In this document: positions 319 to 63,159 of the stretch, piece by piece
How positions within the stretch are numbered: the stretch's first letter is position 1
How the letters are laid out: each line of letters opens with the position of its first letter
From: an uncultured virus (IMG/VR IMGVR_UViG_2700989551_000001)
Taxonomy: Duplodnaviria; Heunggongvirae; Uroviricota; Caudoviricetes
Reading direction: 5' to 3' (one strand)
Virus record (IMG/VR): IMGVR_UViG_2700989551_000001
DNA length: 64,000 nt
Notes under the pieces: model-generated
Seen by the model: only the letters and a program-made list of their open reading frames with translations
Told to the model about the DNA's origin: nothing
Databases searched by the model: none
Made by a program: the position numbers and the translations under genes

Positions 319-424
319 GTTCATGTTTTCCGCTCTTCGGTTTTCAAGTCTCGTCGCCGACCGTCCGTGCGGTGGCATGCGACGGTATGCGTCCCCGGTC
401 GCGGGGATCCCCTATGCGGGCCGC

Positions 425-755
425 GTATGCATTCCGGGGCGCGTGTATGCATCCGTATGCATCAGGGGATGCATACGTTTCCGTTCTCCGTTTCGGCTTG
501 TTTCCAGCGTTCCGGGGATGGTCCGGAGGCGTGTATGCATTGTATGCATCATTCCCTTATAGGGGATTCGGGAAAAAGGAAGGAAACCCCATATATTGAT
601 GCATACAATGCATACAAGAGAAAGGAATTATATTTTTTCCTTTATTTATAAGGGTTTTCGGGCTTTTTCCGGGCTTTTTCTGTATGCATCCCCGGATGCA
701 TACAGATGCATACACGCATACAAAACGGGCCGGAAAACTTTACAATATTGTAAAG
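425..755. repeat. Iteron-like block, copy 1 (nested inverted repeats of GTATGCAT/ATGCATAC, AT-rich core); candidate replication origin
   Basis: Outer IR 443-476/682-715 (2 mismatches in 34 bp), inner perfect 20-bp IR 532-551/597-616, AT-rich tract ~617-660, palindrome CTTTACAATATTGTAAAG 738-755. Lies directly upstream of the primase-helicase gene. A second copy is at ~46035. Confidence 0.85.
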
Positions 756-790
756 GCCGGGACCATGCCCGTCCGGCCCCGCCCCCGCGT

Positions 791-799
791 GACGCATAC
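791..799 (+). promoter_or_regulatory. GACGCATAC motif, 9 nt from CGCATA to ATG (representative of an element-wide putative promoter motif)
   Basis: CGCATA 793-798, ATG at 808, no SD. The same spacing recurs at many genes (see findings). Confidence 0.7.
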
Positions 800-807
800 A
801 TGCGCGC

Positions 808-3351
808 ATGATCGAAAACCAGTACGGCCGTCCCGGCATCACGGGCCCGGCCACCCCCGGGCACGCGGACGGGGCGTTCCTCGCCCGCGTCGCCGACCAG
901 CACGTGCTGCTCAGAAACCCGACGGGCGTGACCGGCGTATGCAACACCATCCACCCCATGGCCGGCGACCCCGCGACCGACATGCCCGGCATCCCCATGC
1001 TGCGGAGCCTCGTGCAGAGGGACGGGGCGAGCACATGGACATGGACCGATCCGAGCGGCCTCATGCCCATGTGGGCGATCCGCATGATCAGCGAGATCGT
1101 GTGCCCCGACCCCGACCTGCGCGTCCTGCCCGACCCGCAGGCGCCCGGCAAGGGCATCCTCTACCGGCGCGTCCTGCCCGACCACACCGTCGAACGCGCG
1201 CCCAGCCGATGGGCGCCCATCGGACCCGTGCGCATCGCCTACGGCGGCTCCAAGGCCAAGGACGACCAATTGGACGGGGACGACGGATGGGTCAAGGACT
1301 CGCTCCTCCTCGCCGGACAGACCATACGCCGCGGATGCAGCTTCGTGTGCACGGACGGGGAGATCCGCTTCGAACACGACCCCGTGTCCGGCGCGTGGAC
1401 GCGCACCGAGACCCGATCCGGCGTCACCCGCTCCTGGACCGGCGCGAAAGACCTCGAATGCCGGGAACCGGATTTCAGGACGGCCACGCTCCGGGAGACG
1501 ACGCCGAACCGGGTCGACGAGCCCATGACCTACACGGTGGAGACCGGATGCACGTGCGAACAGGCCGCGACGCTCGCGAACGAGGCCGGATGGATCCTCG
1601 ACCAGTGGACCGGCCAGGACACGGACAGCACCCTCAACCTGCAACGCTCGCTCGCCGCCCCGTTCCTCCGCAGCCATCCGGAATGCGCGTACGTGTACCA
1701 GGGGCCGGGCGGCACCGGCAAAAGCACGCTCGCCAAGGACCTCATGGAGCATCTCGGCGACCAGGCCACGACCATGAGCCTCGACCTGCTCGCCCAGCCG
1801 ACCGCCATGAGCGCCGAAAACAAGATGGGCGACCTGATGAGCCACCTGCTCGCCCTGTCCGACGACTACGATCCGACCCACGGACGGTTCGAGAAGAGCC
1901 TGCCGAACCTGAAGACCCTCCTGACCGGGCTCCTCCCCTTCTCCGCGCGCCGCCAGGGCGAGAACAGCGTGGACGGCATGCCGCAAAGCACGCATCTGAT
2001 CACCACGAACTACCATCTGCCCGTGTCCAGCTCCGAGGCCGAACAACGCCGCTTCGCGTTCAGCACCATCGCCTCGCAGACGACGCGCGCCCGCCACTAT
2101 CTCCCGTTCCGCCGCAAACACGGTTTCTGGCCGTTCATGCTGGTCGGCGCGATCACATGGCTGACGATCGGCGACCGGCAATGCCGGTCCGTCGCGTTCG
2201 TCGACCTGGAAAGCCTGTCCGACATGGAGGTCGCCGCCATCCGCAGCGTGCTCGACACGGGCGTCGTGATCCCCGACCCCGGCATGCGCGTCAACTGGAA
2301 GAACATCGGCCTGGTGCGCACCAGCACGCGTATCGGCAGCGAGGACGGGCGTCCGCACACCGCGTACCGGCCCGCCCCCGAGGGCGACGGCCTGCACGCC
2401 GTATGGAAGGCGTGCGCGGCCGCCGTGTCCGGCATGCCCGCCGACGAGCCCGAGATCCGGCCCGTCCCCGACCGGGATCTCAAGGTCACGGACCCGGACG
2501 GGTGGGCGGACATGATCCGGGAGGCGGATCCGCGGATCTTCCCCTGCCATGCGGACAAGAGCCCGTCCAGCGACGTGCCCCACCATTCGTGGAAGGACGC
2601 GTGCCAGGATCCGCGGGTGGACATGTCGCACCGGATCGACCCGTCGAAGCCGATCTACGGGACGACCGTCGCCGACGACTACATGTGGGTGGACCTCGAC
2701 TGCCACAAGCAGGATCAGACGTCCGGCTGGGAGCAGATCCAGACGGACGTCGGCCCGTACGGGACGCCGCTCCTGCCGCGCACGTTCGCGGTGCGCACCC
2801 CGTCCGGCGGCGTCCACCTCCTCTACCACATCCCTGACGGGGCGCGCCTGAAATCCAGGACGCACAACGGAGGCCAGATCGACTTCAAAATCGGCCGCGA
2901 CGGCTACGTGGTCATGGGCGGGTCCGTCCTGCCCGACGGGCGGCGCTACACGCCGATAGACCGGCCCGAGGATCGGATCCCCGACCTGTCCGACGCGTTC
3001 CTGCGCTGGGCGGAACGCGTCGACGCGACCGACAAACCCCGTCGCCCCGCCCCCGCGCGGACGGCGGCCGCGCCGGCGGGCGGCGCGTACGATCCGCTGG
3101 CCGCGTTCGACCTGCCCTCCCCCGGCGTGGCCGGGGGCCCGGAGGGGGAGCCGGACATGAGCCCCATCCCCGAGGGGCGGCGCAACGACACGCTCTACCG
3201 GTGGGGGTACGGGCGTTGGAAGAACCATCCCGAGGACGGGGAGCGGATCGCGCGGGACATCATGGAACGCGGACGGATCAGCGGGCTGCCCGACCGCGAG
3301 ACGCTCCGGATCGTGAAAAGCGTGAGAAGCTCGGTGGAAGGAGACCGATGA
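808..3351 (+). CDS. Replication protein: SF3/D5-like helicase + bifunctional primase-polymerase (Prim-Pol) + PriCT-like C-terminus
   Basis: Walker A YQGPGGTGKST, Walker B-like LALSDD, sensor ITTN; Prim-Pol motifs WVDLDC, VRTPSGGVHLLY, IDFK..GYVV; C-terminal IPEGRRNDTLYRWG. Confidence 0.85.
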   Translation: MIENQYGRPGITGPATPGHADGAFLARVADQHVLLRNPTGVTGVCNTIHPMAGDPATDMPGIPMLRSLVQRDGASTWTWTDPSGLMPMWAIRMISEIVCPDPDLRVLPDPQAPGKGILYRRVLPDHTVERAPSRWAPIGPVRIAYGGSKAKDDQLDGDDGWVKDSLLLAGQTIRRGCSFVCTDGEIRFEHDPVSGAWTRTETRSGVTRSWTGAKDLECREPDFRTATLRETTPNRVDEPMTYTVETGCTCEQAATLANEAGWILDQWTGQDTDSTLNLQRSLAAPFLRSHPECAYVYQGPGGTGKSTLAKDLMEHLGDQATTMSLDLLAQPTAMSAENKMGDLMSHLLALSDDYDPTHGRFEKSLPNLKTLLTGLLPFSARRQGENSVDGMPQSTHLITTNYHLPVSSSEAEQRRFAFSTIASQTTRARHYLPFRRKHGFWPFMLVGAITWLTIGDRQCRSVAFVDLESLSDMEVAAIRSVLDTGVVIPDPGMRVNWKNIGLVRTSTRIGSEDGRPHTAYRPAPEGDGLHAVWKACAAAVSGMPADEPEIRPVPDRDLKVTDPDGWADMIREADPRIFPCHADKSPSSDVPHHSWKDACQDPRVDMSHRIDPSKPIYGTTVADDYMWVDLDCHKQDQTSGWEQIQTDVGPYGTPLLPRTFAVRTPSGGVHLLYHIPDGARLKSRTHNGGQIDFKIGRDGYVVMGGSVLPDGRRYTPIDRPEDRIPDLSDAFLRWAERVDATDKPRRPAPARTAAAPAGGAYDPLAAFDLPSPGVAGGPEGEPDMSPIPEGRRNDTLYRWGYGRWKNHPEDGERIARDIMERGRISGLPDRETLRIVKSVRSSVEGDR

Positions 3352-3418: not shown

Positions 3419-4705
3419 TTAATGAAGCCTTGCGGTTCGGCGGGTTCCCGCTTCACGGGCGTCTGCGTTGCGACCGGCTTGCGCCAGTCCCCGTCTTACG
3501 TCGCCTCTACGGGCGTTTAACGACTCCGCGAGTCCCGCGGCGTCGAGGATGTTCAGTGCGGCGTTCCAATCACGGTCGAGCCGTATGCCGCAGTTCGGGC
3601 ATTCCCATTCGCGTATGTCCAACGGTTTCCTGCCATCCCTGTGTCCGCATTGGGAGCAGATTTGGCTGCTGGGATACCAGCGGTCGATGCGAGTGACGGT
3701 TCTGCCGTATTGGACGCCCAATTGTTGAATGCGGTCGATGATGCGCGTCCAGTTCGCGTCCAACAGGCTTTTCGCCATGCGGGTGCGCGCCAGTCCCTTG
3801 ACGTTCAGGGTCTCCAAGGCGATGGCTTGGTTCTCGCCCGCCACCCGGAATGCCAGCTTGTACGCCATGTCCCTGCGTTGGTTCCGTATCCGACCGTAGG
3901 TCTTGGCCTTCAGGAGTCGTGTCTTCGCATGGTTGTTCGAGCCTTTCTTCTCTCTTGCCAGTCGTTTGTCGAGTTTGCGCAGTCGGCGCGTCTTGTGTTT
4001 CAGGGTGTGTGGGTGGGGTATCTTCTCGCGTGTGCCGTCCGTGTAGACGATGCTCATGAGCGAGCCAAGCCCCATGTCGATGCCGCACGCCTCATGCAGC
4101 GGCTTGGGGGCGTCGGTCTTGTCATCGACTTGCACGGTGAGGCTCGCCTCGTAGGAGCCGTCCGCATGTCTCATGATGGTGACGGTGTTCGGCGTGGACG
4201 GCAGTTCGCGCGTCCAACGGAGCTTGACCCGCCCTATTTTCGGGAGCGTCAGGAACGCCCACTTGCATCCGTCCGCATGCCCGACCTTGAATCGCGCGGA
4301 TTTGGTGAACTCGGCCGACTGTTCGCCGTCCCTGCGGCTCTTGTACCGGGGCAGCCCCGTGCGACGCTTCTTCCCGGTACGGCGGTTGGTCACAATATGC
4401 GTCCTGCCCGCCTTGTAGAGGCGAAGGAAGTTCCGGTAGGCCATGTCCGCGTGGCGTATCGACTGCTGTAAAGGCGTGGATGATACGGCCAGAAGCCATT
4501 CCATGCCGGGTTCTCGCTTCCATAGGGTGAACATGTTGCTCAACTGCGTGCAGGACTGCATTCGCCCATGTCGGCGACGCATAAGCTCCCGCTGGTCGAG
4601 CGTCCAATTGTACGCGTACCGGCATGCGCCGTACAGGCATGACAATGCCTCGCGCTGCCCTTGCGTTGGGTAGGCGCGGTAGTTGTATCGCCTGTAGGAA
4701 CACAT
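3419..4705 (-). CDS. tnpB: RNA-guided endonuclease TnpB
   Basis: N-terminal YNYRAYPT; RuvC motifs GIDMG, ALETLN, DRDWNAA; zinc ribbon CSQC..CPNC. Catalytic D/E/D all present. Confidence 0.95.
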   Translation of the reverse strand: MCSYRRYNYRAYPTQGQREALSCLYGACRYAYNWTLDQRELMRRRHGRMQSCTQLSNMFTLWKREPGMEWLLAVSSTPLQQSIRHADMAYRNFLRLYKAGRTHIVTNRRTGKKRRTGLPRYKSRRDGEQSAEFTKSARFKVGHADGCKWAFLTLPKIGRVKLRWTRELPSTPNTVTIMRHADGSYEASLTVQVDDKTDAPKPLHEACGIDMGLGSLMSIVYTDGTREKIPHPHTLKHKTRRLRKLDKRLAREKKGSNNHAKTRLLKAKTYGRIRNQRRDMAYKLAFRVAGENQAIALETLNVKGLARTRMAKSLLDANWTRIIDRIQQLGVQYGRTVTRIDRWYPSSQICSQCGHRDGRKPLDIREWECPNCGIRLDRDWNAALNILDAAGLAESLNARRGDVRRGLAQAGRNADAREAGTRRTARLH

Positions 4706-4729
4706 GTTTGGTATTAATACTTGGTCTCT

Positions 4730-5146
4730 ATGGATAAGACAAACGATATTCGTAAGGGACGGCACTGCGTCTACGATTTGCATGCGCACTTGGTCTTCGT
4801 CACCAAATACCGGCACGACGTGTTCACCGACGAGCACCTGAAGGCGTTGGAACGCATATTCTCCGACGTGTGCGCCTCGTTCGACTGCCGGTTGGAGGAG
4901 TTCAACGGCGAAACCGACCACGTGCACCTGCTCATATCATTCCCGCCGACCGTGGAGCTCAGCCGACTCGTCAACAGCCTCAAGGGAGTGTCCAGCCGAT
5001 ACATGCGCCGCGACTATCCCGAACTCGCGCGACACTATTGGAGGGCGCAGCGCCTCTGGTCGCCCAGCTACTACGCGGGCACGGCGGGAGGCGCACCGTT
5101 GGACACGTTGAAACGGTACATAGAGAACCAGAACAGGCCCGCGTGA
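4730..5146 (+). CDS. tnpA: IS200-type Y1 HUH transposase
   Basis: HLVFVTKYR, DHVHLL (HUH), LKGVSSR, LWSPSYY, YIENQ. Confidence 0.96.
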   Translation: MDKTNDIRKGRHCVYDLHAHLVFVTKYRHDVFTDEHLKALERIFSDVCASFDCRLEEFNGETDHVHLLISFPPTVELSRLVNSLKGVSSRYMRRDYPELARHYWRAQRLWSPSYYAGTAGGAPLDTLKRYIENQNRPA

Positions 5147-5188: not shown

Positions 5189-5548
5189 ATGGCGGACACG
5201 CGGGCCGTCCGCCGTCCCGCGGAACGATGGTTCCACGAGGCCGGACCCCTGCGTCTCGACCGGTACATGCGCGGCGGCATGGGCGACGTGGCGCGCATGA
5301 TCGTCCACGACCGGCTGCACCCGGACATGCCCGTCCTGGCGGGACGCCGCCTGGACGAGCTGATCGACGCCCACGCGTACGACGCGCTCATCGCGACGGG
5401 CATGGGCGACATGCTCACCGTCGCCCAATGGACGAGTATCGCCCGCCACGGCGATCCGGCCGCATGCCGGATCCTCGACGGGATGCGACGCGGCATGGAC
5501 GACGCGTTCGCCTGCAGGCGTCTGCGTGGCATGTGCACGCCCGCATAG
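5189..5548 (+). CDS. Hypothetical protein, probably 5'-disrupted by the IS
   Basis: ORF with coding-like GC3. A start with SD (AAGGAG..ATGATG at 3348) overlapping the rep stop lies on the other side of the IS. Confidence 0.55.
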   Translation: MADTRAVRRPAERWFHEAGPLRLDRYMRGGMGDVARMIVHDRLHPDMPVLAGRRLDELIDAHAYDALIATGMGDMLTVAQWTSIARHGDPAACRILDGMRRGMDDAFACRRLRGMCTPA

Positions 5549-23636: not shown

Positions 23637-23700
23637 GCGCGCCGCCTATGCCGGCCCGCGCATAGGCGCCCCCCGCAGACGACCACGGAAAGGAGCCATC

Positions 23701-24989: not shown

Positions 24990-25052
24990 AAGAGGGGGGC
25001 CGTCCGGTTCCCGCCTGCCCCGATGGGGTTGCGGGACCGGACGGCCCCTCTT
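24990..25052. terminator. Hairpin between convergent genes
   Basis: AAGAGG..GGCCGTCCGGT.CCCGC / GCGGGACCGGACGGCCCCTCTT. Confidence 0.6.
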
Positions 25053-25071
25053 CCTGTGCCGGAACGGCCCG

Positions 25072-25365: not shown

Positions 25366-25410
25366 GTCGTCTTCCTTTCGTCCATGATTGATGCCGTTTT
25401 CCGAAGCCCG

Positions 25411-27117
25411 CTATGCGTCCCCGCGCAGCATGCGCGTGGATTCGGCGAGCATGAGGGCCGCGAGGCGTCCCGCGGCGCGGATGCGTTCCAGCCGGGCGTC
25501 CAGCGTCCCCTCCCCGTCCCCGTCATGGTCGAGGATGAGGCGCAGCACGCGTTCCACGTCGCGGGCGAGCGTGGAGTCCAGCCACGCGAACAGGGCGGCC
25601 CGTTCCGGCCGGCCTTCGGCCAGTCCGGGCACGTCGGGCACGATCGGCCCGTACGCCTTGCGCGCCGCCGCCCATTGGACGCGCAGCAGTTCCAGCGCGA
25701 TCGGGCGGATGCGTTCCGTATGCCCGTCGGCGAGCAGGCCGGCGCGGGCGAACGTGAGCGTCAGCTGCGTGAACCCGTATCCGGCGACGTTGAACCCGTG
25801 TTCCGACCAGGACGGGTCGTACGGCCTGCGCTCCGCGAGCGTCACCTCCGGCACGGGCTCCGGCTCGGATGCGGCGGATTCCGGCACCTGTTCCGGCACG
25901 GGTTCCGGCTTCGCCTCCGGATCCGTCGCGGGTTCCGTCCCGGATGCGACGGGTTCCGGCTTCGGCGTCGGATTCCACGGATCCTCGCCCGGACCCGAAC
26001 CCATCCACCGGTCCATCGTCTCACGCCCCTGCGGCGTCTCCCACGGATCCGGCGCCGGTTCGGGCAGACCGGCGCGCGGACGCGCCGCGGCCGCGCGCTT
26101 CACCTCCCCGGTTTCCGCCTCCGGGGCGGCGGCGTCCAATCCGAACAGGTCCAACATCACAGGCTCCTTCCTCACATGATTCCAACCACCGGTATGCGTC
26201 CCCACGAACCCGACGCGCGGATCGTCCGGGCCGACGCTCGACAAGGCGTCCCGCCGGCCCGACGGTATGATCCGGGCCAGCGGGCAGGCGCGCGCCACCG
26301 GACACCAGGCGCACAGGCCCGACGGCCTCAACGGCAGGACGCCGTCCCCGTCCGCGCCCGTCGCGCGCACAATCCCGTCCCACGCATGACGGAAACGGGA
26401 CACGGTGTCCGTGCACGCCGCATCCGACAGGTCCGCGGCCGCCCACGCATGATGCTCCACATACACGTCACGCGCCGCACGCACCTCGCACACGCCGTTC
26501 GCCTCCAGCATCAGCCGGTACAGGCGCAGCTGGTCCGCATGCCGCCGGCGGGCGTCACGGTACTTCGGCGTGCCGCCCGTCTTCCAATCCACCACCGTGC
26601 CGTCCACGTCACGATAGTCCACGGCGCCACGCAACGGGATGCCGTCGACATCCGCCTCCAGATCCTGCTCCAACGCGGCCGGCTCCAACACGCGGCCCAA
26701 CGCGTCCGTCAAAACGAACCCCGACAGCTTCGCCGCCGCGGCCCCCACCCAATCATCCTGCGTGGCGGGCGAACCGTCCGGCATCGCCACGCCGGGCGGG
26801 ATCGGCTCATCGCCCCAACCCCGCGCCCTCCACCGCTCGTACTCCACGCCGACGCCCCTGGCGCACAGGGCCCGCCAATCCGGGGCGACACGATCCGGCG
26901 TACGGCAGGCAAGCTCCAACGCGGCGTGCGCGATGCCGCCCAGGACGAGCGGACTGCCCCACAGACGGGGCTTCGGCATCAGCTTCTCCGCCGCCCAACG
27001 CGCCGGGCACGACATCCACTTGTCCAACGCGCTGAACGACGCGTGCGAGGGACGCGCCAGACGCGCACGGGCGACACCCGCCCCCATATCGAACGTCATC
27101 AACAGTTCATCACTCAT
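25411..27117 (-). CDS. PD-(D/E)XK nuclease (AddB/RecB/Cas4-like, four-Cys) fused to an unrelated C-terminal region
   Basis: FSALDKWMSCPARW, LRGAVDY, VVDWKTG, QLRLY, CAWCPVARACP. Internal promoter motif, SD and ATG at 26157. Confidence 0.8.
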   Translation of the reverse strand: MSDELLMTFDMGAGVARARLARPSHASFSALDKWMSCPARWAAEKLMPKPRLWGSPLVLGGIAHAALELACRTPDRVAPDWRALCARGVGVEYERWRARGWGDEPIPPGVAMPDGSPATQDDWVGAAAAKLSGFVLTDALGRVLEPAALEQDLEADVDGIPLRGAVDYRDVDGTVVDWKTGGTPKYRDARRRHADQLRLYRLMLEANGVCEVRAARDVYVEHHAWAAADLSDAACTDTVSRFRHAWDGIVRATGADGDGVLPLRPSGLCAWCPVARACPLARIIPSGRRDALSSVGPDDPRVGFVGTHTGGWNHVRKEPVMLDLFGLDAAAPEAETGEVKRAAAARPRAGLPEPAPDPWETPQGRETMDRWMGSGPGEDPWNPTPKPEPVASGTEPATDPEAKPEPVPEQVPESAASEPEPVPEVTLAERRPYDPSWSEHGFNVAGYGFTQLTLTFARAGLLADGHTERIRPIALELLRVQWAAARKAYGPIVPDVPGLAEGRPERAALFAWLDSTLARDVERVLRLILDHDGDGEGTLDARLERIRAAGRLAALMLAESTRMLRGDA

Positions 27118-27219
27118 ACGCGCGCTTATGCGTCCCCCGAAAAAAAACAGGCCGGGGCCCGCCGGCCCCCTCCCGGAAAAGGAAGGGGACGACGGGCCCC
27201 GGCCTATGCCGCCGCCGGT

Positions 27220-28106: not shown

Positions 28107-28229
28107 GCTATTGCTCCTTCAATCCAGGGACGGATATCGTCACGCCGCCCCTATGCGCGTGCGACGCATCATGCCACGCCCCGTCGAACAGACGGCGGCG
28201 CGGCCCCCGGGCGTCCGGCGCACGCCGCG

Positions 28230-28415: not shown

Positions 28416-28474
28416 GGGGAGGGATCGTTTTCCCTTGCAAAAAACCGGGTTTCGGGGGCGCATAGCCGCCCGCC

Positions 28475-30620: not shown

Positions 30621-30668
30621 CGGCCTCCTTTCACGCGCGCGTATGCGTTCCGGGGCATAGGGGCGGGC

Positions 30669-33038: not shown

Positions 33039-33080
33039 CGCATACCCGGGTCGCAAACCGTTGTTTTGTGTGGAAAGGAC

Positions 33081-35195: not shown

Positions 35196-35270
35196 GGGTG
35201 GTCCCCTTTCTCGATGGTCAACCGTCCGGCCTTGTATGCGTCCCCCGGCCCCGCGCATAGCCCGGCATGC

Positions 35271-37486: not shown

Positions 37487-37521
37487 GCGCGACGCCTATG
37501 CGCGCATAGGCGTCGCGCATG
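37484..37521. promoter_or_regulatory. Perfect 38-bp palindrome forming the whole intergenic region; back-to-back CGCATAG motifs
   Basis: CATGCGCGACGCCTATGCG|CGCATAGGCGTCGCGCATG; both ends are start codons of divergent genes. Confidence 0.85.
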
Positions 37522-38898
37522 CCGTTCAATCCTTTCGCCGCCGGTCCCGCCGAACCCGTCGCGGAGCCGTCGCCGGCGGAGCCGGCCGATGGGGGCGCGA
37601 CGCGGGAATCCGACGTCGACGACGGCTGGTGGGATTTCGGGAGCGGACCGGATGCGGCGGACGCGACGCCGGACCCCGATCCGGCGGACGCCGCGGCGGA
37701 CGACGGCCGGCGGGATGCGGACGGGAGGGGCGGGCAATCCGAAGACGCGCCCGATCCCATGCCGGACGACGGGGCGGACGACGACTGGTGGGGCATGGCC
37801 TCCGATGCGGGAGGGGACGACGCGCCCCCGGCCCGGACGGCGCGGGACCCCGCCGGACCCGCCGCCCATGCGGGCGACGACACGGATGCGGACGACGACT
37901 GGTGGGGCATGGCCGGCGGGGAGGCCATGCCGGGCCCGCCGGCCGGGATCCCGGCGCGCACGGGGACGGACGAGACCCCCGGCATGGACGCGGACGACGA
38001 CTGGTGGGGCATGGCCGGCGGGGACGGGCCGCGATCCGACGACGCCGATCCGACGCCGCGGCTCGTCAGCGTGCCCGGCACCAGCGTGCGCATCCCCGCG
38101 GACTTCGACTGGGGCACCGACACCCCCGCGGCCGGGCCGGCCGACGGCGTGCGGGAGCCCGCCCCGGCCCCCGCACGCCGGCCCGGCCCGTCGCGCCGCA
38201 TCCTCATCGCCGCCACGGCCGCCATCCTCGCCCTCGCCCTCCTGGCGGGCGGCGTCGTCGCGGCGCGCACGCTCATCGCCTCCGACCGGCAGCGGAAGGC
38301 CCACGACGAGGCGTGCGCGACGCTCACCGCGCAGGCCGGAACATGGGACGGGCTCGCACGGCAGGCGAAGACGCTCGGCGTGAAACCCGGCGACGGGCCC
38401 GACACGTCCTGCAAGGCGGACACGGACACGCTCAAGGCCCGGGCCCGCACGCTCAAGGCCCGGGCCCGCACCCTCGCCAGGGCGAACCGGAACGCGCTGG
38501 ACGCCGCATGGGAAAACCTGTCCGGCCGGATCGCGGCAAGCCGCAAGAACCATCCGAAGGCCGGCGGGCAGACGCTCGCCGCGCTCGAAACGCTCGCCGA
38601 GACCGCGCCCGAGGACGCGGACGGCCTGGCCGCGAAGGAACGCGAATTCGAACGGCTCGACAAGCAGGCCGGACAGGAGCAGCAGCAGGCCGAACAGGAG
38701 GAGAAGGCGGAGGCCGAGGCGCGACAGGAGGCCGAACGGGAGGCCGAGGCGCGACGGGAGGCCGAGGCGCAGGACACGCCCCAGGCCGCCGCCCCCACGC
38801 CGGCGCCCATGCCGCAGACCACCCCCACGCCGGCCCCGCAGCCCACGCCGACACCCACACCCACACCGGCGCCCGGCAACGCGGACGCCAGCATGTGA
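37519..38898 (+). CDS. Bitopic membrane protein with acidic disordered N-terminus (DDDWWGMA repeats)
   Basis: Three 27-bp repeats at 37774, 37888 and 37990; TM ILIAATAAILALALLAGGVV; PT-rich tail. Confidence 0.75.
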   Translation: MPFNPFAAGPAEPVAEPSPAEPADGGATRESDVDDGWWDFGSGPDAADATPDPDPADAAADDGRRDADGRGGQSEDAPDPMPDDGADDDWWGMASDAGGDDAPPARTARDPAGPAAHAGDDTDADDDWWGMAGGEAMPGPPAGIPARTGTDETPGMDADDDWWGMAGGDGPRSDDADPTPRLVSVPGTSVRIPADFDWGTDTPAAGPADGVREPAPAPARRPGPSRRILIAATAAILALALLAGGVVAARTLIASDRQRKAHDEACATLTAQAGTWDGLARQAKTLGVKPGDGPDTSCKADTDTLKARARTLKARARTLARANRNALDAAWENLSGRIAASRKNHPKAGGQTLAALETLAETAPEDADGLAAKEREFERLDKQAGQEQQQAEQEEKAEAEARQEAEREAEARREAEAQDTPQAAAPTPAPMPQTTPTPAPQPTPTPTPTPAPGNADASM

Positions 38899-38913
38899 CG
38901 CATACCCGACCCC

Positions 38914-39174
38914 ATGAACGACGCATACGAACGACTCACCATCGGCCAGGCGCAGACCCTGGCCCGCATCATCGACGGCCTGCGCGACCACGGGTTCGAC
39001 CCCGACGGGCAGGGCATCCACACGCCCAACCTGCACGTCGAACCCGGGGACGGGACACGCGTCAACTGGTGGCTCGACGGCGACACGGCGTTCGCCAACG
39101 GCAGCATGGACGCGCAGGGGCACGGCGTATGGTGGACGCGCCGCGCCTACGCGCCCACCCTGCGACGCTCCTAA
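38914..39174 (+). CDS. Small hypothetical protein
   Basis: Preceded by GACGCATAC at the 9-nt spacing; natural composition. Confidence 0.7.
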   Translation: MNDAYERLTIGQAQTLARIIDGLRDHGFDPDGQGIHTPNLHVEPGDGTRVNWWLDGDTAFANGSMDAQGHGVWWTRRAYAPTLRRS

Positions 39175-42100: not shown

Positions 42101-43319
42101 CGCTGAACGCGAGGATCGGGGCCGGCCAGTACAGGGGGGACGGATCGTATTCGATCATGTCGTCGGAACCGATCTGCATGTCCTCGAACGCGGCCTCCTG
42201 ACGGTCCGGGTTCAACCCGACGTGCCCCGGATAGGGGACGCGGTTCGACTGCTCCACGATCATGGGCAGTGCGGCGTGCGCGTGCGCCTGGACGAGCGTG
42301 GGCCACGGCTTGCCGTCCGCCTGGTATTCGCCGTTCGCCGCCTCCAGCTCGCGCGCCACGCCCAGGTTCGCCTTGCGGCCGCCCGCCGCCTGCTCGTACG
42401 CCTTGTCGAGCACCTTGTCCGCGTCCTTGTCCAATTGCTCGCGGGTCATCTCCCCCGGTTCGACCAGGCCCTTCACGCTGATCGCGACCGCCCCGCACCG
42501 GCTCGCGTCCAGGAGGCCGGCCGCCCAGTCGGAGCCGGGGGCGGTGTTGTTCTCGCCCTTGAAGGGGAGCACGCCGAGCGTGACCACGGTCAAAGGGTAG
42601 GAGCCGGGAATCCTCGCCGACCATTTGCGGCAGTCGTCGACCTTCTCGCGCATGCGGGCCGCGACGAACGCGGACCGGTAGTCGGGGAACGTGTGCATGT
42701 GGTCGTGCTCGACCATGACGGGCAATCCCTCGGGCTTGCGGTCGGTGGGCCAGAACGCCATGGCGCGGCGCATCGTCGCGTCGGACGGGATGCGGCAGCC
42801 CGCGTCCTCCATGAGGGCGCGCACATCCTCCAGATCGTGTTCGAACGCGTCGTCGGGCGTCCACCCGTCCTCGTCGGCGACGCCTTTCAGGAACCCTTTC
42901 ACGCCGCCCTGCCCGCCGCCCGTGTTCAGCCGGACGCCGAACAGGGTGAACCGGTCGCGCACGGCGAGCCCTTCCTGTTCGGCGGCGAGGCGCAGCCGGT
43001 TGTCCGGGTCGAGCGTGGGGCTGGGTTCGAAGGGGCGCGACCCGCTGACCGCGAGGATGTGGACCCGCCGGTACAGGCCCTTCATGGCCTTGCGTCCGGC
43101 GAATGGGACGCGCGGCGTCCGGTCGGCGAGCCCGCCGAGTATCGACAGCATGGGGCGGGCGGCCTTCAAACGCTCCTCCATGCCGGACGCGTCCGTGACG
43201 GACGGCTGGTCGGGCATCCTCATGTACAGCCATGCGGCGCCGTTGACCGTGCGCACGAACCCGCCGCCCATATGCCGGGCGAACGTGCCCGTCTCCCTGA
43301 CAATGCGTTTCCTCGTCAT
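39171..43319 (-). CDS. VirB4-like conjugative ATPase containing an intein
   Basis: Walker A GSTGSGK/T split by an intein; WDPK; Walker B VVIDEAW; RLARDQ..MLSQ. Confidence 0.82.
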   Translation of the reverse strand: MTRKRIVRETGTFARHMGGGFVRTVNGAAWLYMRMPDQPSVTDASGMEERLKAARPMLSILGGLADRTPRVPFAGRKAMKGLYRRVHILAVSGSRPFEPSPTLDPDNRLRLAAEQEGLAVRDRFTLFGVRLNTGGGQGGVKGFLKGVADEDGWTPDDAFEHDLEDVRALMEDAGCRIPSDATMRRAMAFWPTDRKPEGLPVMVEHDHMHTFPDYRSAFVAARMREKVDDCRKWSARIPGSYPLTVVTLGVLPFKGENNTAPGSDWAAGLLDASRCGAVAISVKGLVEPGEMTREQLDKDADKVLDKAYEQAAGGRKANLGVARELEAANGEYQADGKPWPTLVQAHAHAALPMIVEQSNRVPYPGHVGLNPDRQEAAFEDMQIGSDDMIEYDPSPLYWPAPILAFSGLAGCSMTGDDSGRGLDSDLPGAFVGVTEADGQPVYDSPFAASRRSGKAISIIVGSTGSGKSVSLDTSLPVPPQKRFPEGGLVPLRDLEDGDMLYARDGKTYPILGMSPIGDDDMYEIVLSDGQRIKASGDHQWCAWTWRDRNFARTGKHRKSLERRERVRKAQERLRAMAAGHGMDEWWDCERIWREVRPLVAPFAGKGGETWVRNALRFADVPSRMQPGRARNRPGGRFYEPAPLLGHIRDRWEHTVGNGFGVEARALRLARLDGLIADPPAEPIDTAWLLERFGDLGVSKGAFESALRSYDGPRAEPAGTARRMRVAWPAPLALARLADRIGWRYRDEPGSGHGEQTVTTREMLDEGLLADGGQANWAIRATAPVQGVRTDLPIDPWTLGAWLADGSKTGGGFASDPSNGDLDHLENRLRTAGYEVTRSACDPQKTYAKRLVRQLRANGLYGDKHIPEPYFHADVEQRLELVRGLLDQDGAIDRNGSVEFTQSIDHKPIVDGLTRLLRSLGVVVHEATRTKAGYTADGERHETRDRLRLTFTTSLPVFSLPRKRALLPTELRETSKWLYVKGIRPIADCPHRCLSIASPDRTYLIGGYVPTHNTRLGLHVAAQWGRLPDPEHPGVQIPVVFWDPKPKSSDFEPFVRKRGGVVVKLDRPEARGILDPLRCIPRHMTDTIVQTSVAMLSQITGGANPDRAWEMGVSSIVGYGLRHGADCLGECVRLAWEEYSHRGREAKDIDPLVERIRPVLDRAVKNDPLMPLIYGTEPGGRRLSLSQGMTLISAGSLNVITDKEIQGAPTDVQRWVCRMAALGASCLVIGRNGAVVIDEAWSLLQDRFGRSVVDRMGRLARDQHYMVMMLSQKADEFVDAGIEDFVGKVYVLAVGARNEGSGRDSQAQAACRLANQPLDGRMHARMMHDRYVDPDSRAPDWESLYPLRDPETGGLLRGSVAYLQVGDAASAIPVVVRVDGSLD
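40284..41918 (-). mobile_element. Intein (545 aa) with LAGLIDADG homing endonuclease
   Basis: Starts SVSLDT after GSGK; block B IKASGDHQW; LGAWLADG and VRGLLDQDG; ends VPTHN followed by Thr. Confidence 0.92.
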
Positions 43320-43350
43320 GCGGCGCGCCTATGCGCGCGTCGCATGACGG

Positions 43351-44563
43351 TCAGCCGAGCGTGGCGAGGATCACGCCCAGACCGTCCGGATCCGTCGGAT
43401 CCGAGCACAGGCGCGCCAGCAGGCCGGCCGCCTCGCGCATCGCGCGCCGCGCATCCGGCGACCCCGCAGCCAGCAGCCGCAACTGGCGTGGCGTGTAGCC
43501 GCCGTGCCGTCGGCACCGGTAGAGCACGTCCATCGCATGCGCGTCCGCGTAGGCGAGCAGCATGTCCACCTGCGCGGACGACAGGCCGTCGCCGAGGCGG
43601 GCGAGCGTGGCCGCGCCCGAACCACGTTCGAGGATCATGTCGACGCGGCGGGGCGTGAACATCTGCCTTTCGACGCTGAGGGAGAGGCGTTCCAGCAGGC
43701 CGGCCGACCCGTGCGCCGCCCAATGGTCGTACAGGGTTTCGGTCAGGCGTTCGCGGCGCGGATCGTCGTCGGGCATCCAGCCGGACAGGTAGGAGCCGAC
43801 CATGTCCGGGTCGCCGTGTTCGAGCAGGAGGCGGATGTCCTTCTCCGTGAGCGTGGGACGGTCCGAACCGTCGCGTGCCGCGGCGTCCGGCGCGTACAGG
43901 CTCCAGCACGCCCGGTCGGCCAGGCCGGATTCGACGATCCGGCGCAACAGGGCCGCGTCCGGCCGGCCGTACCGGAGCACGAGCCATGCGGCGTCCGGGC
44001 TTCCGGTTTCGAACAGGCGGACGGCGCGGTCGGCGATCCAGCCGGGGGCACGGTATTCGAGTTTCGTCAGGACCCCCGGGTCCGTCTCCTTGCCGAACAC
44101 GTGCAGACGGTCGTCGGGCGTATGGTCCACCAGTTCGAGGCGCACCGTCGGATCCGGATCGTCCAGGAACGAATCCAGCCGGCCGTCCGTCAGCATGCCC
44201 ATATGCTTCAACGCGTCCAGACGGATTTTCGGATCCGGGTCCGCGAGCACGAGGCCGGGTTCATGCGCGGCGAGCGCGCGGCGTATGGCCTTCGGGCAGC
44301 GGTTCGCCCGCCTCCGCCATGCGTATCGCGTCACGGGCCGTGTCGCGTCCCATGCCGGTGACGGTCAGGCGGCGCGCGCGCCAGCCTCCGGCCGCATCGT
44401 CCACGGCGAAGCAGCCGGTGCGGGCGGCCGCGCGCGCCGCGTTCGCGCTCGCCGCCTCGAACGAGTTCGGCACGGTCCCGCCCCATTGTTCGCGGGTCTC
44501 CGGCTCGCCGTAGTGGGCCATCAGCAGGTTCCATTGGCTTTCCGACAGTTTCCTAAGGCTCAT
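43351..44563 (-). pseudogene. Helical-repeat (HEAT/LRV-like) protein with one frameshift near 44295
   Basis: ORF 44563.. (MSLRKL..GEPLP) continues in another frame as KAIRRALAAHE..; LADPDPKIR and LDDPDPTVR repeats. May be a sequencing indel. Confidence 0.6.
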
Positions 44564-44643
44564 CGTGTTCTCCCGTCATCGCGCCCCGGCATCGTCGCCG
44601 CGACGCATGCGTCCCCCCGGCGGACGTTTTTTTTCAGCCCGAT

Positions 44644-46014
<1,371 letters not shown>

Positions 46015-46034
46015 TCAGTCGGCCTCCGGGCCGT

Positions 46035-46386
46035 GTATGCATTCCGGCCGGGCTGTATGCATCCGTATGCATCAGGGGATGCATACACGCCCGTTCTCCG
46101 TTTCGGCTTGTTTCCGGCGTTCCGGGGCGGCCTCCACGCGTGTATGCATTGTATGCATCATTCCCTTATAGAGGATTCGGGAAAAGGAAGGAAACCCCAT
46201 ATATTGATGCATACAATGCATACAAGATAAAGGAATTATATTTTTTCCTTTATTTATAAGGGTTTTCGGGCTTTTTCCGGGCTTTTTCTGTATGCATCCC
46301 CGGATGCATACAGATGCATACATCGGGGCGAGAATAATACTTTAAGGTATGATTTCGGATACGGGGCTTTACAATATTGTAAAGCC
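46035..46386. repeat. Iteron-like block, copy 2 (direct repeat of 425-755)
   Basis: Near-identical nested IRs and AT-rich core; palindrome GGCTTTACAATATTGTAAAGCC at 46365-46386. Confidence 0.88.
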
Positions 46387-46990: not shown

Positions 46991-47005
46991 CGCATACCCG
47001 GGGGC

Positions 47006-49404: not shown

Positions 49405-50406
49405 TTAACTGCAGGGAACTTGGACGCCCGGCTTGCCACTGGTATCAATCACCCAGCAATCTTCATAATAACCGTCATCACCACCAGAGGAGCCTCCGTT
49501 GCCGCCGCCCTGGGAAGGCTGCTGTGGCTGCGGCTGTGGCGTCGGCGTATAGCCGCCTCCGTTACCGGTGGGCTGCTGTGGCATGTACGTGTAGCCGCCG
49601 CCCTGGGATTGCGTGTAGCCTCCGCCCGTGTATCCGGTGTAGCCACCGGTCGTATCGCCCGTGTAGGAGGAGCCGTTGTCCGGCGCCTGGGCGGCATTGT
49701 CGGCCGCCTGCTTCTCCTTTTCGGCCTTGGCCTTCGCGTCCGCATCCGACTTCGCCTTGATGGAGTCGTTGACCGTCTTCATGGCGTCCGAGATCGCCTT
49801 CCCGTCCTTCGATTTGATGGCGTTCTCCAATGCGGCGCGAACCTTGTCGTCCTTCACCCTGCCCTTCGAATCATTCAGGATTCTGGTCGCGTCGGCGACG
49901 GTCTTGTCGAGCTTCGAGGCGTTCACGGCCTCGGCCTTGCCCTTGACCTCGCCTACGGTCTTCGCATACGCGGTCGCGGTCTTGTCGAGCCACGCGGTCA
50001 CGGCCTTGATGTCCTTCAACCCATCCGCCGGGCATCCGGGGATATCGGTCTTCGTCTTCGAGGCCGTCTTCACGGTCGAAGCCAACGTCCCGACCGTTTT
50101 CGCGTCCTTGACCTCCGAATCCTTGACCCTGATTGCGGTCTTCAAGGCGTCCGACTTCAGGTATTCCGTCAGCTTCTTCCGCGCCTTCACCGCCCTGTCG
50201 TATGAGGTGGCGCATTCCTCCGAAGCCGCCGTCAACCGATCATGGTTCCAATACAGGCATCCGCCGATACCGCCCGCCGCGAGGACGACGGCGCATCCGC
50301 CCGCGATCACCGGCACCAGCCACTTCGGGCGCTTCGGTTTCGAGGCGGCGCGGGCGGCCCCCGACGGTTCCGTCGGGGGCTGGGGCACGGGATTCGATCC
50401 GCTCAT
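49405..50406 (-). CDS. Membrane-anchored helical surface protein, tandem copy A
   Basis: N-terminal TM, Lys/Ala-rich helices, Gly/Tyr/Thr-rich tail; near-identical to 50526-51536. Confidence 0.8.
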   Translation of the reverse strand: MSGSNPVPQPPTEPSGAARAASKPKRPKWLVPVIAGGCAVVLAAGGIGGCLYWNHDRLTAASEECATSYDRAVKARKKLTEYLKSDALKTAIRVKDSEVKDAKTVGTLASTVKTASKTKTDIPGCPADGLKDIKAVTAWLDKTATAYAKTVGEVKGKAEAVNASKLDKTVADATRILNDSKGRVKDDKVRAALENAIKSKDGKAISDAMKTVNDSIKAKSDADAKAKAEKEKQAADNAAQAPDNGSSYTGDTTGGYTGYTGGGYTQSQGGGYTYMPQQPTGNGGGYTPTPQPQPQQPSQGGGNGGSSGGDDGYYEDCWVIDTSGKPGVQVPCS

Positions 50407-50465
50407 GTTATGTTCCTCTTTCATGTTTCCGCTACGCGCACGATGATAAATCATCAAAACAATAA

Positions 50466-50506
50466 AGAGGTGTGGCATATCCCATTATGGGATATGCCAC
50501 ACCTCT
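50466..50506. terminator. Perfect hairpin between the tandem paralogs
   Basis: AGAGGTGTGGCATATCCCA-TTA-TGGGATATGCCACACCTCT. Confidence 0.75.
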
Positions 50507-50525
50507 CACGCGGAAAGAGGAATGA

Positions 50526-51536
50526 TCAACTGCAGGGAACTTGGACGCCCGGCTTGCCACTGGTATCAACCGTAAAGCAGGTGTCCCATCCATCATCTCC
50601 ACCGGTTGAACCGCCGCCGTTGCCTCCTTGGGATGGCTGCGGGGTCGGTTGTGGCGTCGGCTGCGGTGCGGGAGTGTACCCGCCTCCGTTGCCGGTGGGC
50701 TGCTGTGGCATGTACGCGTACCCGCCGCCCTGGGATTGCGTGTAGCCTCCGCCCGTGTATCCGGTGTAGCCTCCGGTTGTATCGCCCGTGTAGGAGCCGC
50801 TGTTATCCGTCTGCGCCTGGGCGGCATTGTCGGCCGCCTGCTTCTCCTTTTCGGCCCTGGCCTTCGCGTCCGCGTCGGATTTCGCCTTGATGGAGTCGTT
50901 GACCGTCTTCACCGCATCCGAGATCGTCTTCCCGTCCTTCGATTTGATGGCGTGCTCCAATGCGGCGCGAACCTTGTCGTCCTTCACCCTGCCCTTCGAA
51001 TCATTCAGGATCCTGGTCGCGTCGGCGACGGTCTTGTCGGTCTTCGAGGCGTTGACCGCATCCGCCTTGCCCTTGACCTCGTTCACGGTCTTCGCATATG
51101 CGGTCGCAAGACCGTCGATCTCCTTCGTCGTCGCCTCGATATCGGCCCGATTGCCGGAGGGGCATTCCGGAACGGTCGTCTTCGTCTTCTCGGCGGCCTT
51201 TACCGTCGAGGCCAACGTCCCGACCGTTTTCGCGTCCTTGACCTCCGAATCCTTGACCGTGACCGCGGTCTGCAGGGCGTCCGACTTCAGGTATTCCGTC
51301 AGCTTCTTCCGCGCCTTCACCGCCTTGTCGTATGAGGTGGCGCATTCCTCTGAAGCCGCCGTCAACCGATCATGGTTCCAATACAGGTATCCGCCGATAC
51401 CGCCCGCCGCGAGGACGACGGCGCATCCGCCCGCGATCACCGGCACCAGCCATTTCGGACGCTTCGGTTTCGAGGCGGCGCGGGCGGCCCCCGACGGTTC
51501 CGTCGGGGGCTGGGGCACGGGATTCGATCCGCTCAT
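50526..51536 (-). CDS. Membrane-anchored helical surface protein, tandem copy B
   Basis: SD AAAGAGGA before MSGSNP; paralog of copy A. Confidence 0.8.
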   Translation of the reverse strand: MSGSNPVPQPPTEPSGAARAASKPKRPKWLVPVIAGGCAVVLAAGGIGGYLYWNHDRLTAASEECATSYDKAVKARKKLTEYLKSDALQTAVTVKDSEVKDAKTVGTLASTVKAAEKTKTTVPECPSGNRADIEATTKEIDGLATAYAKTVNEVKGKADAVNASKTDKTVADATRILNDSKGRVKDDKVRAALEHAIKSKDGKTISDAVKTVNDSIKAKSDADAKARAEKEKQAADNAAQAQTDNSGSYTGDTTGGYTGYTGGGYTQSQGGGYAYMPQQPTGNGGGYTPAPQPTPQPTPQPSQGGNGGGSTGGDDGWDTCFTVDTSGKPGVQVPCS

Positions 51537-51782
51537 GTTATGTTCCTCTTTCATGTTTCCGCTACGCGCACGATGATAGCATCATGCGTGGCTTGTTCCG
51601 GTCGGTTTCCTCACATCCCGGGGATTCATCCATTCCTGGCGCTTGCCCCGGCTTCAATCATCCCACGGTATGCGTCCCTCGGGAAGCCAACGGATTTAAA
51701 CCATGAAAGTGAACCGGGTGCCGCATCCCCTGCGGCCCGTCATGGGCCGGGGGGGATGCGGCACCCCTTGCCGTCCCGCGTG

Positions 51783-54728: not shown

Positions 54729-54858
54729 AAGGATGTTTCCTTTCTGTCGGATAGGGGACGGCGTACGTCCGCCCCCGCACGCGCGTCTATGCGGGCCGGA
54801 AAGGCACATGATCGTCCCGGGACATGGAAGAACGGCATGGGATTGGATTTGACGGTTT

Positions 54859-55779: not shown

Positions 55780-55867
55780 GCCTCCCGTATGCGTCCGTCC
55801 GGAACGCATACGGGAGGCATGCAGCAGGGGACGCCCGTCCCCGCACCCACAAGGAAAGGAAACCGTC

Positions 55868-58867: not shown

Positions 58868-58970
58868 GGCCACGGGTATGCGTCAGGCGGGGCAGGCGTA
58901 TCGGATCATGGAAACGGGACGGTCCCCGCCGTTCCAGACCCTTAGTCTTGGCCGCATGGACATCATCCGC

Positions 58971-60871: not shown

Positions 60872-60970
60872 ACGCGGCTGTATGCGTTCCGAGGCATTCG
60901 AAAAAACCCGTCAGCCGTTGCAGATGACTTCGCCCTAGCGACAAGCTAAAACAAAGTCATCTGCAACGGA

Positions 60971-61375
60971 TCAATCCTCGACGATCCCGTCGAGCGTCCA
61001 TTCGCATGCATAATAGGGTCCGTTGTCGGTCATCCACCCGTCCTTCCCGTCCGCCGGACGCCCCTCGTAGCGGCTGATGTCGGCGATGGCCGGATCGTCG
61101 GTCTTGTGGAGGCGGATGAGGTCGCCCGGCTCCGGTTCGCGCCGTACGGCCTCGGGCAGCACGGCGTCCGGGTCGGGGAACGCGGAGCCGTCCCCGATCC
61201 AATGGTCGGTGCAGTCCGAGTCCACGATGTAGGGTTCGCCCGCATCGGTCCTGCCGGCCAATGCGGGGCGGAAGCGCGTCCATTCGTCGCCGTCCCGTTG
61301 GATCAAGATCCCGCCTTTGATGCGGTCGAGGAGGCTTGCGGGCAGGTTCTCCCAACCGATGATGTCCTCGTTCAT
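60971..61375 (-). CDS. Acidic hypothetical protein
   Basis: Start MNEDII with variant GACGCATG at the 9-nt spacing. Confidence 0.65.
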   Translation of the reverse strand: MNEDIIGWENLPASLLDRIKGGILIQRDGDEWTRFRPALAGRTDAGEPYIVDSDCTDHWIGDGSAFPDPDAVLPEAVRREPEPGDLIRLHKTDDPAIADISRYEGRPADGKDGWMTDNGPYYACEWTLDGIVED

Positions 61376-61526
61376 GCCCGCGCGCATGCGTCCCCGACGC
61401 ATGGCCTCCGGTTCCGCGGCCCGCCGTTCCGGAAGGGCGACGTGGCGCGCCTGCTGGCCGAGGGGCATGTCACGCACGTCCCCGTCGGACGGTTCCGGGT
61501 CGGGCGGGGGCGCATAGCCGGATCGC

Positions 61527-62606
61527 ATGGTCATGGACAGGAACAATCGAAGCCACCGGGCGAAGGGCCTCCCCCAAGGGTGTGCGGGCACCTTCGAGCC
61601 GGCGTCCGGCACGGCGGGCGGAGACGTCATGCCGCCCGCCGCCGAGGATCTCGACCCGAAACGCTACGGGCACAAGAGGGCCGTCAGGCTTGTGAACTGG
61701 CGGGTCGAACACGATCCGACCAGCCTGTGGCTGCAAGACCGGCTCAAGGCCACCATGCCCGGCGTGGACGCGGACGGCAACCCGTTCGACTACCGGGACG
61801 AGCCGGTGCTCGACCCGGCGGCCGAGGCGCGCATGATCGACGACGCGGTCTACCGGGAGGATGCGGACGGACGCCCGCACTACGGGCGGATCATGCGCGC
61901 CCTCGCCTCCTGGTATCCGAACGAGGCGGAACGCTTCGACATGGCGCGCAGGATCGCGGAGGACCGGTGCGACGCGCTGCGACGCAACGTGATCGGCGAC
62001 CCGGCCCGATGCTACTCCGCCAGGCTCGTCGGCTACGCGCTCACCCGCCCCGTGCGCATGGAGGCGATCCTCGCCCGTCCGCCCTACAATCTGAGCGCGC
62101 ACCGGATGCGCGTCGGCAAACGGTACATGGACCGGATCGGCGCGTACGCGCGCGAACACGGCGGACGACTGCCCGACAAAAGGCAGCGCGACCGGATCTG
62201 GGACGAGAACATGGGCGACTTCATCCACGAGAAGATCGCGAAGGGCGTCCAGTACGGGCGCGGCATGTACTATTCCGACGGGTCGAACGCGCGCCCCGAA
62301 TACCATGGACGCCCGCCCCGTCTGGACGCGGACGGGAACCCGTTCAACGCGCGCGAGGACTTCGAACGCATGCTGGCCGCCGGACGTGCGGAGCTCGGTC
62401 GGACGCCCGCCGAATTCGACGACGTGGTCAACAGGATGGACGCGCATGCGGCGTTCGCCCCGGGGGGCGCGGACGCGCACGCCGCATGGGCGGAGGCGCG
62501 CCGGCGCGGCCTGGACGTGCGCCTGGTCGAGGCCGCGCTCGACGTGGACGCGTCGGACGCGGCCGCATGGGAGGCGGAGTATCAGGCGAGCTCGGGCACC
62601 CGGTAG
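61527..62606 (+). CDS. Hypothetical protein with N-terminal DRNxRSHRxxGLPQGxAGTF motif
   Basis: CGCATA-N10-ATG (CATAG type); N-terminus shared with 23701. Confidence 0.75.
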   Translation: MVMDRNNRSHRAKGLPQGCAGTFEPASGTAGGDVMPPAAEDLDPKRYGHKRAVRLVNWRVEHDPTSLWLQDRLKATMPGVDADGNPFDYRDEPVLDPAAEARMIDDAVYREDADGRPHYGRIMRALASWYPNEAERFDMARRIAEDRCDALRRNVIGDPARCYSARLVGYALTRPVRMEAILARPPYNLSAHRMRVGKRYMDRIGAYAREHGGRLPDKRQRDRIWDENMGDFIHEKIAKGVQYGRGMYYSDGSNARPEYHGRPPRLDADGNPFNAREDFERMLAAGRAELGRTPAEFDDVVNRMDAHAAFAPGGADAHAAWAEARRRGLDVRLVEAALDVDASDAAAWEAEYQASSGTR

Positions 62607-63103
62607 GTGCGGGGCACGGCCGCGCCCGCGGGCCACATGTCATGGTCGCGGGCGAACCTGACCGTCACGTTGACGACGGTCCCGGGCATGGGGCGGGCGA
62701 GCATCGCGTCCAGGCCCTTTTTGTCGCCGGCCAGCCAGAACACGAGGAGCGCGAGGTCCATGGCGCCGGCCGCGCATCCGGGCCTCGTCCCGACGAGCGT
62801 CGAAAGCGTGTCGCGCGCGGCCGTCAGCCGGCCGGGCCTGGGCGTGACGGGGATGGGACGGCGGCGCAGCACGTCCATCGCCTCCCCCATGCCGGCGGGC
62901 AGGCGCGGGTGATCCGCGGCGCGTGCGGCGAGCGTGCGCGCGTCGCACGTCGGGTCGAGGAGGGCGAGCGCCATCATGTCGCGTCCCCTGGGATCGTTCA
63001 GGCCGGCGGCGAGCCGGTCGGCGGTCTGGTCGTTCATCCACGTGCCCGCGCCGCCTTCGAGGCGCGCGATCCACTCGTTGGCCAGGTTCATGTAGTCTTC
63101 CAT
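62582..63103 (-). CDS. Hypothetical protein, weakly DUF4192-like
   Basis: SD GGAGGA; LNDPRGRDMM, LALLVFWLAGD. Confidence 0.55.
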   Translation of the reverse strand: MEDYMNLANEWIARLEGGAGTWMNDQTADRLAAGLNDPRGRDMMALALLDPTCDARTLAARAADHPRLPAGMGEAMDVLRRRPIPVTPRPGRLTAARDTLSTLVGTRPGCAAGAMDLALLVFWLAGDKKGLDAMLARPMPGTVVNVTVRFARDHDMWPAGAAVPRTYRVPELA

Positions 63104-63159
63104 TGCCGTTCCTCCGTTTCGACGGTGTTGTGCGCCCCCGGGTATGCGTTCCCCGTCCG

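Follow-up and report, generated by a model that had tools for sequence, protein, structure and literature searches.

What reads the short sequence that stands in front of so many genes in this DNA? The window, by which we mean the whole 64,000-nucleotide stretch analysed (IMG/VR record IMGVR_UViG_2700989551_000001, from an uncultured virus), carries a GCATA-containing hexamer upstream of many start codons. An initial annotation had described it as one motif, (C/G)GCATA, serving as a private, non-host promoter of most transcription units. DNA near-identical to the window is present in genome G001 and in viral record G002. In G001, the element to which it belongs has a tyrosine integrase at one end and an excisionase-like helix-turn-helix (HTH) gene at the other, and is flanked by perfect 20-bp direct repeats 172.7 kb apart. 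It encodes a VirB4-like ATPase, FtsK-like ATPases, wall hydrolases, sortases, a tRNA array, primase, helicases and methylases. No relaxase was identified in the element; by its integrase, excisionase-like gene, direct repeat, transfer ATPase and wall hydrolase, it is classed from sequence as an integrative conjugative element. Its named relatives are Bifidobacterium, and judged by its transfer ATPase (33% identity) it is distantly related to pMP7017-type megaplasmids. We put at about 0.68 the probability of the best overall explanation, that the hexamers belong to element-private promoters without a -35 box, read by two sigma-like paralogues that the element itself encodes.

The coordinates given for the motif were all right. 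Hexamer, spacing and ATG were found as described at 17/17 leaderless starts, and the Shine-Dalgarno (SD) patterns AGGA, GGAG, GAGG and AAGG were absent at -16 to -4 in all of them. At SD-led (leadered) starts the motif lay further away, 21-59 nt upstream of the start, in 10/10; an SD pattern was detected at nine of these, and start 33081 has GAAAGGA just beyond the scanned interval. SGCATA occurs 74 times in the window against 32.6 ± 5.3 in shuffled sequences, and none of 100 shuffles reached 74. An ATG follows CGCATA at 8-11 nt 16 times per 56 sites in the window (p = 2e-6). In the two arms of the element that lie beyond the window, which the author of the initial annotation had not seen, the counts were 12 per 42 sites (p = 2e-4) and 15 per 43 (p = 2e-6), and in about 450 kb of host DNA 16 per 179 (p = 0.19). 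This positional comparison, proposed with the initial annotation, demonstrated enrichment in the element and not in the host. The control hexamers CGCATG, TGCATA, CGTATA, CCCATA and CGCATC showed no ATG spacing in the window. When all hexamers were scanned at 9-10 nt, ACGCAT, CGCATA and GCATAG took ranks 1-3 in the element and were unranked in the host and in the plasmid. Operon-first genes were taken from gene calls made without use of the motif; 61/103 of those in the element had it within 120 nt upstream, versus 2/48 flanking host genes and 2-5% of random windows. Part of the motif-less remainder consists of start miscalls, insertion sequence (IS) genes and toxin-antitoxin modules. "Most transcription units" thus became about 60%.

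We found that the hexamer is not one motif but two. A split on the flanks of 42 anchored sites gave class I, with the consensus g(g/t)gACGCATRc 8-9 nt before ATG, and class II, SGCATAG without a preceding A and mostly 10 nt before ATG. A C after the hexamer was paired with 8-9 nt spacing in 21/22 sites and a G with 10-11 nt in 14/18 (p = 2e-6). The spacing of CGCATA held, whereas GGCATA alone was not enriched and was confined to class II. Class I sites precede the primase, PIF1 helicase, nucleases, DnaN-like clamp, ssDNA-binding protein and SNF2 helicase genes, as well as methylases, the integrase, the excisionase-like gene and tRNAs. Class II sites precede the transfer ATPase, both FtsK-like genes, a ParA-like gene, the lysozyme/CHAP hydrolase, and pilin and surface proteins. 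The private-promoter reading of the initial annotation was retained, with two motifs tied to different gene sets in place of one. The resemblance to CATA boxes of Bacillus sporulation sigmas mentioned there is not required for this reading. Several sites form back-to-back pairs. The sites in the window are as follows.

386..391, minus: class I, upstream of tRNA-Trp (247-318) and the tRNA array
793..798, plus: class I, 9 nt before primase-polymerase gene 808-3351
5542..5547, plus: class II, leadered, before SpaA pilin-domain gene 5596
23647..23664: class II back-to-back pair for FtsK-like ATPase 23636(-), leaderless, and tagged protein 23701(+), leadered
25412..25417, minus: hybrid I/II, leadered, before 25365(-)
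27127..27132, minus: class I, 9 nt before PD-(D/E)XK nuclease 27117(-)
28152..28157, minus: class II, leadered, before 28106(-)
28459..28464, plus: class II, 10 nt before ParA-like ATPase 28475
30642..30659: class I for 30620(-), back to back with class II (9 nt) for 789-aa protein 30669(+)
33039..33044, plus: class I, leadered, before DnaN (beta-clamp)-like gene 33081
35235..35259: back-to-back, class I for 35195(-) and class II (11 nt) for lysozyme/CHAP wall hydrolase 35271(+)
37497..37508: a 12-bp palindrome made up of two adjoining class II sites, located between starts 37486(-) and 37519(+)
38899..38904, plus: class I, 9 nt before 38914
43330..43335, minus: class II, 10 nt before intein-bearing VirB4-like transfer ATPase 39171-43319(-)
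46009..46014, minus: class I, 9 nt before PIF1-like helicase 45999(-)
46991..46996, plus: class I, 9 nt before exonuclease 47006
54788..54793, minus: class II, leadered, before 54728(-), a 981-aa protein with a plasmid homologue annotated as cell surface protein
55788..55810: class I back-to-back pair for 55779(-) (8 nt) and 55868(+) (leadered)
58877..58882, minus: class I, 9 nt before methyltransferase-like gene 58867(-)
60881..60886, minus: class I, 9 nt before C5 cytosine methylase 60871(-)
61385..61390, minus: class I variant CGCATG, 9 nt before 61375(-)
61511..61517, plus: class II, 10 nt before the start of sigma-like paralogue II; candidate self-promoter, of the same class in 7/7 genomes
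63143..63148, minus: class I, leadered, before 63103(-)

As the initial annotation had noted, the sites do not resemble housekeeping promoters. T stood at -7 in 2/42 sites, so TANNNT is not matched. Across five elements, with 58 sites of class I and 42 of class II, no upstream column rose above the random-column null, and a TTGACA-like -35, as expected of sigmaA promoters, was not found. The arrangement is that of gp55-like single-box promoters, with a conserved box near -10 and no -35, its position relative to +1 assuming leaderless starts. At the 37497-37508 pair the starts are only 32 nt apart, which leaves no non-coding room for -35 boxes. TANNNT lay within 100 nt upstream of 13/61 motif-bearing genes versus 30/47 host flank genes.

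Kin elements were located through the protein family of the sigma-like paralogues, whose profile matched 8/236 Bifidobacteriaceae genomes, and 60-200 kb was taken around seven of these. Related elements were present in 6/7 regions, with about 25-55% protein identity for five and >90% for G461. G588, with one partial family match and no element genes in 60 kb, was excluded from the motif counts. Because G439 and G448 are near-identical, and likewise G001 and G461, the set represents about five lineages. In the spacing scan, GCATA words were at or near the top beside SD words in 6/6 kin elements, one of which has 44% GC and belongs to another genus, and were not prominent in 4/4 host samples from kin genomes. 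Orthologues retained the motif class and not the flanks; the exception was gene 1239835, for which G001 has a class II site and both G427 and G440 a class I site. For the transfer ATPase, the start was leadered in two genomes, G427 and G440, and leaderless in G001, G439, G448, G461 and G583, with the motif retained. Since the motif is kept while genes switch between leaderless and SD-led forms, it seems to act as a transcription signal and not as a ribosome-binding or translation signal. Together with its position ahead of tRNA genes and the general absence of host TANNNT, this makes a dedicated non-host promoter the best reading, and on sequence grounds the motif is very probably a promoter element. 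Besides G001, no family-bearing genome was found among 401 phylum and 401 order genomes sampled; the family was absent from the plasmid records searched, and no viral contig had it beyond record G002.

We next considered what could recognise these promoters. A Pfam scan detected no sigma factor or polymerase in the 49 window proteins and 150 of the 152 further proteins listed. An element-encoded RNA polymerase was rejected, as no fitting DxDGD protein or RNAP family match was found, and a 1063-aa intein protein proved FtsK-like. By reading the unannotated proteins, we found two paralogues (II against I, blastp E = 7e-11).

61527..62606, plus: sigma-like paralogue II, 359 aa, a candidate for reading the class II promoters
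G001 C1 1240932-1241969 (L011:932-1969), outside the window: sigma-like paralogue I

Paralogue II consists of an N-terminal tag, predicted sigma2/sigma3-like helices and a C-terminal HTH. A family profile search collected 97 proteins, about 70 of them matching beyond the tag, and 44 aligned members fell into two clades with support 1.0 (23 II, 21 I). No Sigma70_r2/r3/r4-type profile matched in the 53 members scanned. When a sigma profile built for this analysis was run by hmmsearch, paralogue I came fifteenth of 181 element proteins (E = 0.11), and paralogue II was not among the matches listed. Foldseek against PDB and BFVD returned nothing at E <= 0.001 for the paralogues; their long structural alignments go to sigma chains only, below significance. 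Residues 309-359 of paralogue II match generic HTH/homeodomain folds, colinear with sigma C-termini. Both paralogues occur in 7/8 family-positive genomes and in G002. They and a 98-aa hydrophobic protein are the only genes found in all five distant kin yet off the plasmid, a count from partial kin sequences that may therefore miss further shared genes. Gene II has GCATAG 9-10 nt upstream in 7/7 genomes and at least 11/12 metagenome loci. Gene I has GGACGCATA 8-9 nt upstream in 6/7 genomes, the exception being G440, where it was not found; in three genomes the site is a class I/II hybrid. Within 400 nt upstream, TANNNT was not found for gene I and occurred once for gene II, at -297. These results suggest that the paralogues are probably a new sigma family. 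It is likely that they read the motif directly as sigma factors, and one paralogue per motif class is the arrangement that we somewhat favour. A third short frame with a weak family match adjoins paralogue II behind a class I site (G461 C1 1400633-1400839, L039/L052) and was also seen in two metagenome loci, L176 and L177; it is possibly a fragment acting as a regulator.

In the mechanism that we propose, the motif would serve as an upstream-extended -10 element in promoters that are private to the element and have no -35 box. Transcription would start with the A of the ATG or a neighbouring base, which would place the TA at -12/-11 in class II and -11/-10 in class I. The paralogues would be sigma70-family members, though highly divergent ones, and would bind the core RNA polymerase of the host, with paralogue I reading class I for excision, replication, methylation and tRNAs, and paralogue II reading class II for the mating apparatus. 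Each would drive its own gene in positive feedback, so that the integrated element would be largely silent until one paralogue is made. The first sigma molecule might arise by read-through or by circularisation, or protein II might be delivered through the mating pore.

The paralogues, or the WhiB or Xre proteins that the element also encodes, might instead be activators that bind the motif and recruit the host sigmaA holoenzyme in the manner of SetCD. The TA sits where that of a sigmaA TANNNT would, both paralogues hold HTH-like helices, and their sigma homology is not statistically significant. However, the site coincides with the -10 region, so that a bound activator would clash with sigma, and the T at -7 is missing. 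The plasmid, which lacks the motif, has WhiB as well, Xre is not among the genes common to distant kin, and only sigma chains gave long structural alignments, so we regard activation as unlikely. Still less probable is that a single factor, or either paralogue, reads one GCATA core and that the classes are variants of strength or timing rather than regulons. The core is common to both classes, hybrid sites are frequent in kin, and class II heptamers are overall not commoner than in the host (2.55 versus 2.05 per 10 kb). Nevertheless, spacing depends on class, class tracks gene function across lineages, and the paralogues keep their own class; moreover, at the alignment position of the region 3.0 histidine, H is present in 22/23 II and 0/21 I proteins.

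That a host alternative sigma factor reads the motif is very improbable. G001 has a second, ECF-type sigma70 gene, and with about a fifth of the chromosome sampled a small host regulon could escape, but host samples of five genomes showed no enrichment, the 3.2-kb loci around both host sigma genes were motif-free on the coding strand, and the motif goes with the element across genera. ECF promoters also normally have a -35 box. Hardly any weight falls on a repressor, silencer, stoperator-type site or translation signal: mycobacteriophage stoperators are likewise oriented sites near gene starts, and the element is nearly silent in culture RNA, yet an operator would normally be longer than six to eight bases, a host -10 that could be repressed is missing at most motif genes, and the distance is fixed only at SD-less starts while the motif also precedes tRNA genes.

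Element-encoded sigma factors with promoters of their own have precedents. SigN (ZpdN) of the Bacillus subtilis plasmid pBS32 has a mostly element-confined, autoactivating regulon with -35/-10 promoters, and its expression is primed from a LexA-repressed sigmaA promoter (PMC6751061). The predicted system resembles it in an element-encoded, weakly recognisable sigma, an element-restricted regulon and activation of its own gene. Unlike SigN as described there, it has two paralogues, no -35 signal and no host -10 close to either gene, and its regulon comprises excision, replication and transfer. T4 gp55 is a divergent sigma whose late promoters have a single short box at -13 to -6 and no -35 (PMC1524935). 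A chain of a gp45-dependent complex is among the structural matches of the paralogues, and the element has a sliding-clamp-like gene under class I. In contrast, T4 is a lytic phage with an AT-rich box, and gp45 and gp33 are needed.

The activators SetCD (SXT/R391) and Orf7/Orf8 (Tn916) activate integrase, excisionase and transfer genes. SetCD is FlhDC-like; Orf7/8 also switch on their own transcription, and Tn916 relies on read-through from one promoter (PMC5812530). They share with our predicted factors the role of element-encoded positive regulators, whereas here there are dozens of separate promoters in two classes. For pMP7017, PMC10832533 describes canonical TTGACA/TATAAT promoters and a 34-bp motif over the -10. 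Such plasmids resemble the element in size, tRNA array, distant transfer ATPase and many cargo genes 70-98% identical. By megablast no pMP7017-type plasmid matched the window, so close backbone identity is lacking, and plasmid NZ_CP065398.1 lacks the motif and both sigma-like genes. The motif precedes 5/18 cargo genes recently shared with these plasmids versus 56/85 other genes (p = 0.004). Two-sigma cascades are known in phage SPO1. No description of the motif, protein family or element was found in literature listings and abstract starts, a scope mostly outside subscription papers and supplements, nor in the available parts of PMC4537262 and PMC5512222.

If the proposal is true, it would add a sigma family missed by standard profile libraries. 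An integrative conjugative element would then have a transcription programme that is staged and insulated, as is known chiefly from lytic phages, and the switch by which a large element of human-gut bifidobacteria is excised and transferred would be named. It would also offer two orthogonal sigma-promoter pairs, with -35-free promoters of 7-8 bases, to a genus short of expression tools.

The N-terminal tag of paralogue II, the peptide D-R-N-N-R-S-H-R-P-x-G-x-P ... G-x-F/Y, is found on 12 otherwise unrelated G001 element proteins, including paralogue II, a Fic protein, an LPD28 protein and those of window starts 23701 and 61527. It is present in 18/23 II and 0/21 I proteins, and a variant recurs in four kin elements, on several of their proteins. 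Where a tagged gene has a motif, it is of the GCATAG form (8/8). From its distribution the tag is a possible transfer or targeting signal. We consider it doubtful, though conceivable, that a phage-like two-sigma programme with self-driven switches and no nearby host-sigma promoter extends to a sigma injected into the recipient; if the tag is a transfer signal, the injected sigma would start transcription of incoming DNA there.

RNA runs were shallow or unstranded and not from a 5'-end method, and contigs X1 and X5 cannot show starts. In a stranded run from a related strain (about 12% read), window 25000-44900 had a depth of mostly 2-17 and no read starts at motifs, which fits a quiet integrated element and neither supports nor refutes motif start sites. 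Run X22, unstranded and DNA-like, was rejected as RNA evidence. Run X21 contained a discrete 247-nt RNA (window 33501-33747, depth about 130-160) without a nearby motif, probably antisense to the DnaN-like gene.

Other features of the element were also observed. The G001 tRNA array has 21 tRNA calls (L005:580-9037), one with a CTA anticodon, and window 1-318 is the array edge. Related homing-endonuclease inteins are borne by the VirB4-like ATPase (window 39171-43319) and an FtsK-like ATPase (L010:2620-5811). Genes that the element shares with pMP7017-type plasmids include SecG-like, SecE-like, WhiB, FemAB and RNA ligase genes (L004:19754-19993, L005:178-324, L004:11878-12117, L003:14056-15324). 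IS21-type and IS200/IS605 insertions differ between the window and G001 (L010:11711-13198, L005:6907-8394, L007:12821-14284; window 3419-5146), one IS insertion interrupting the PIF1 helicase gene in G001. A 1.13-kb gene is duplicated in tandem at window 49405-51554, its copies 86-92% alike, with more copies in G002. A dispersed 300-340 bp repeat, TGCATA-rich and with inverted ends (window 417-764 and 46027-46322; 9 copies in the G001 element), often precedes a TTTACAATATTGTAAA palindrome and accounts for the excess of TGCATA. It was present in G461, was found neither in the plasmid nor in the regions taken from distant kin, and may be MITE-like or origin-like.
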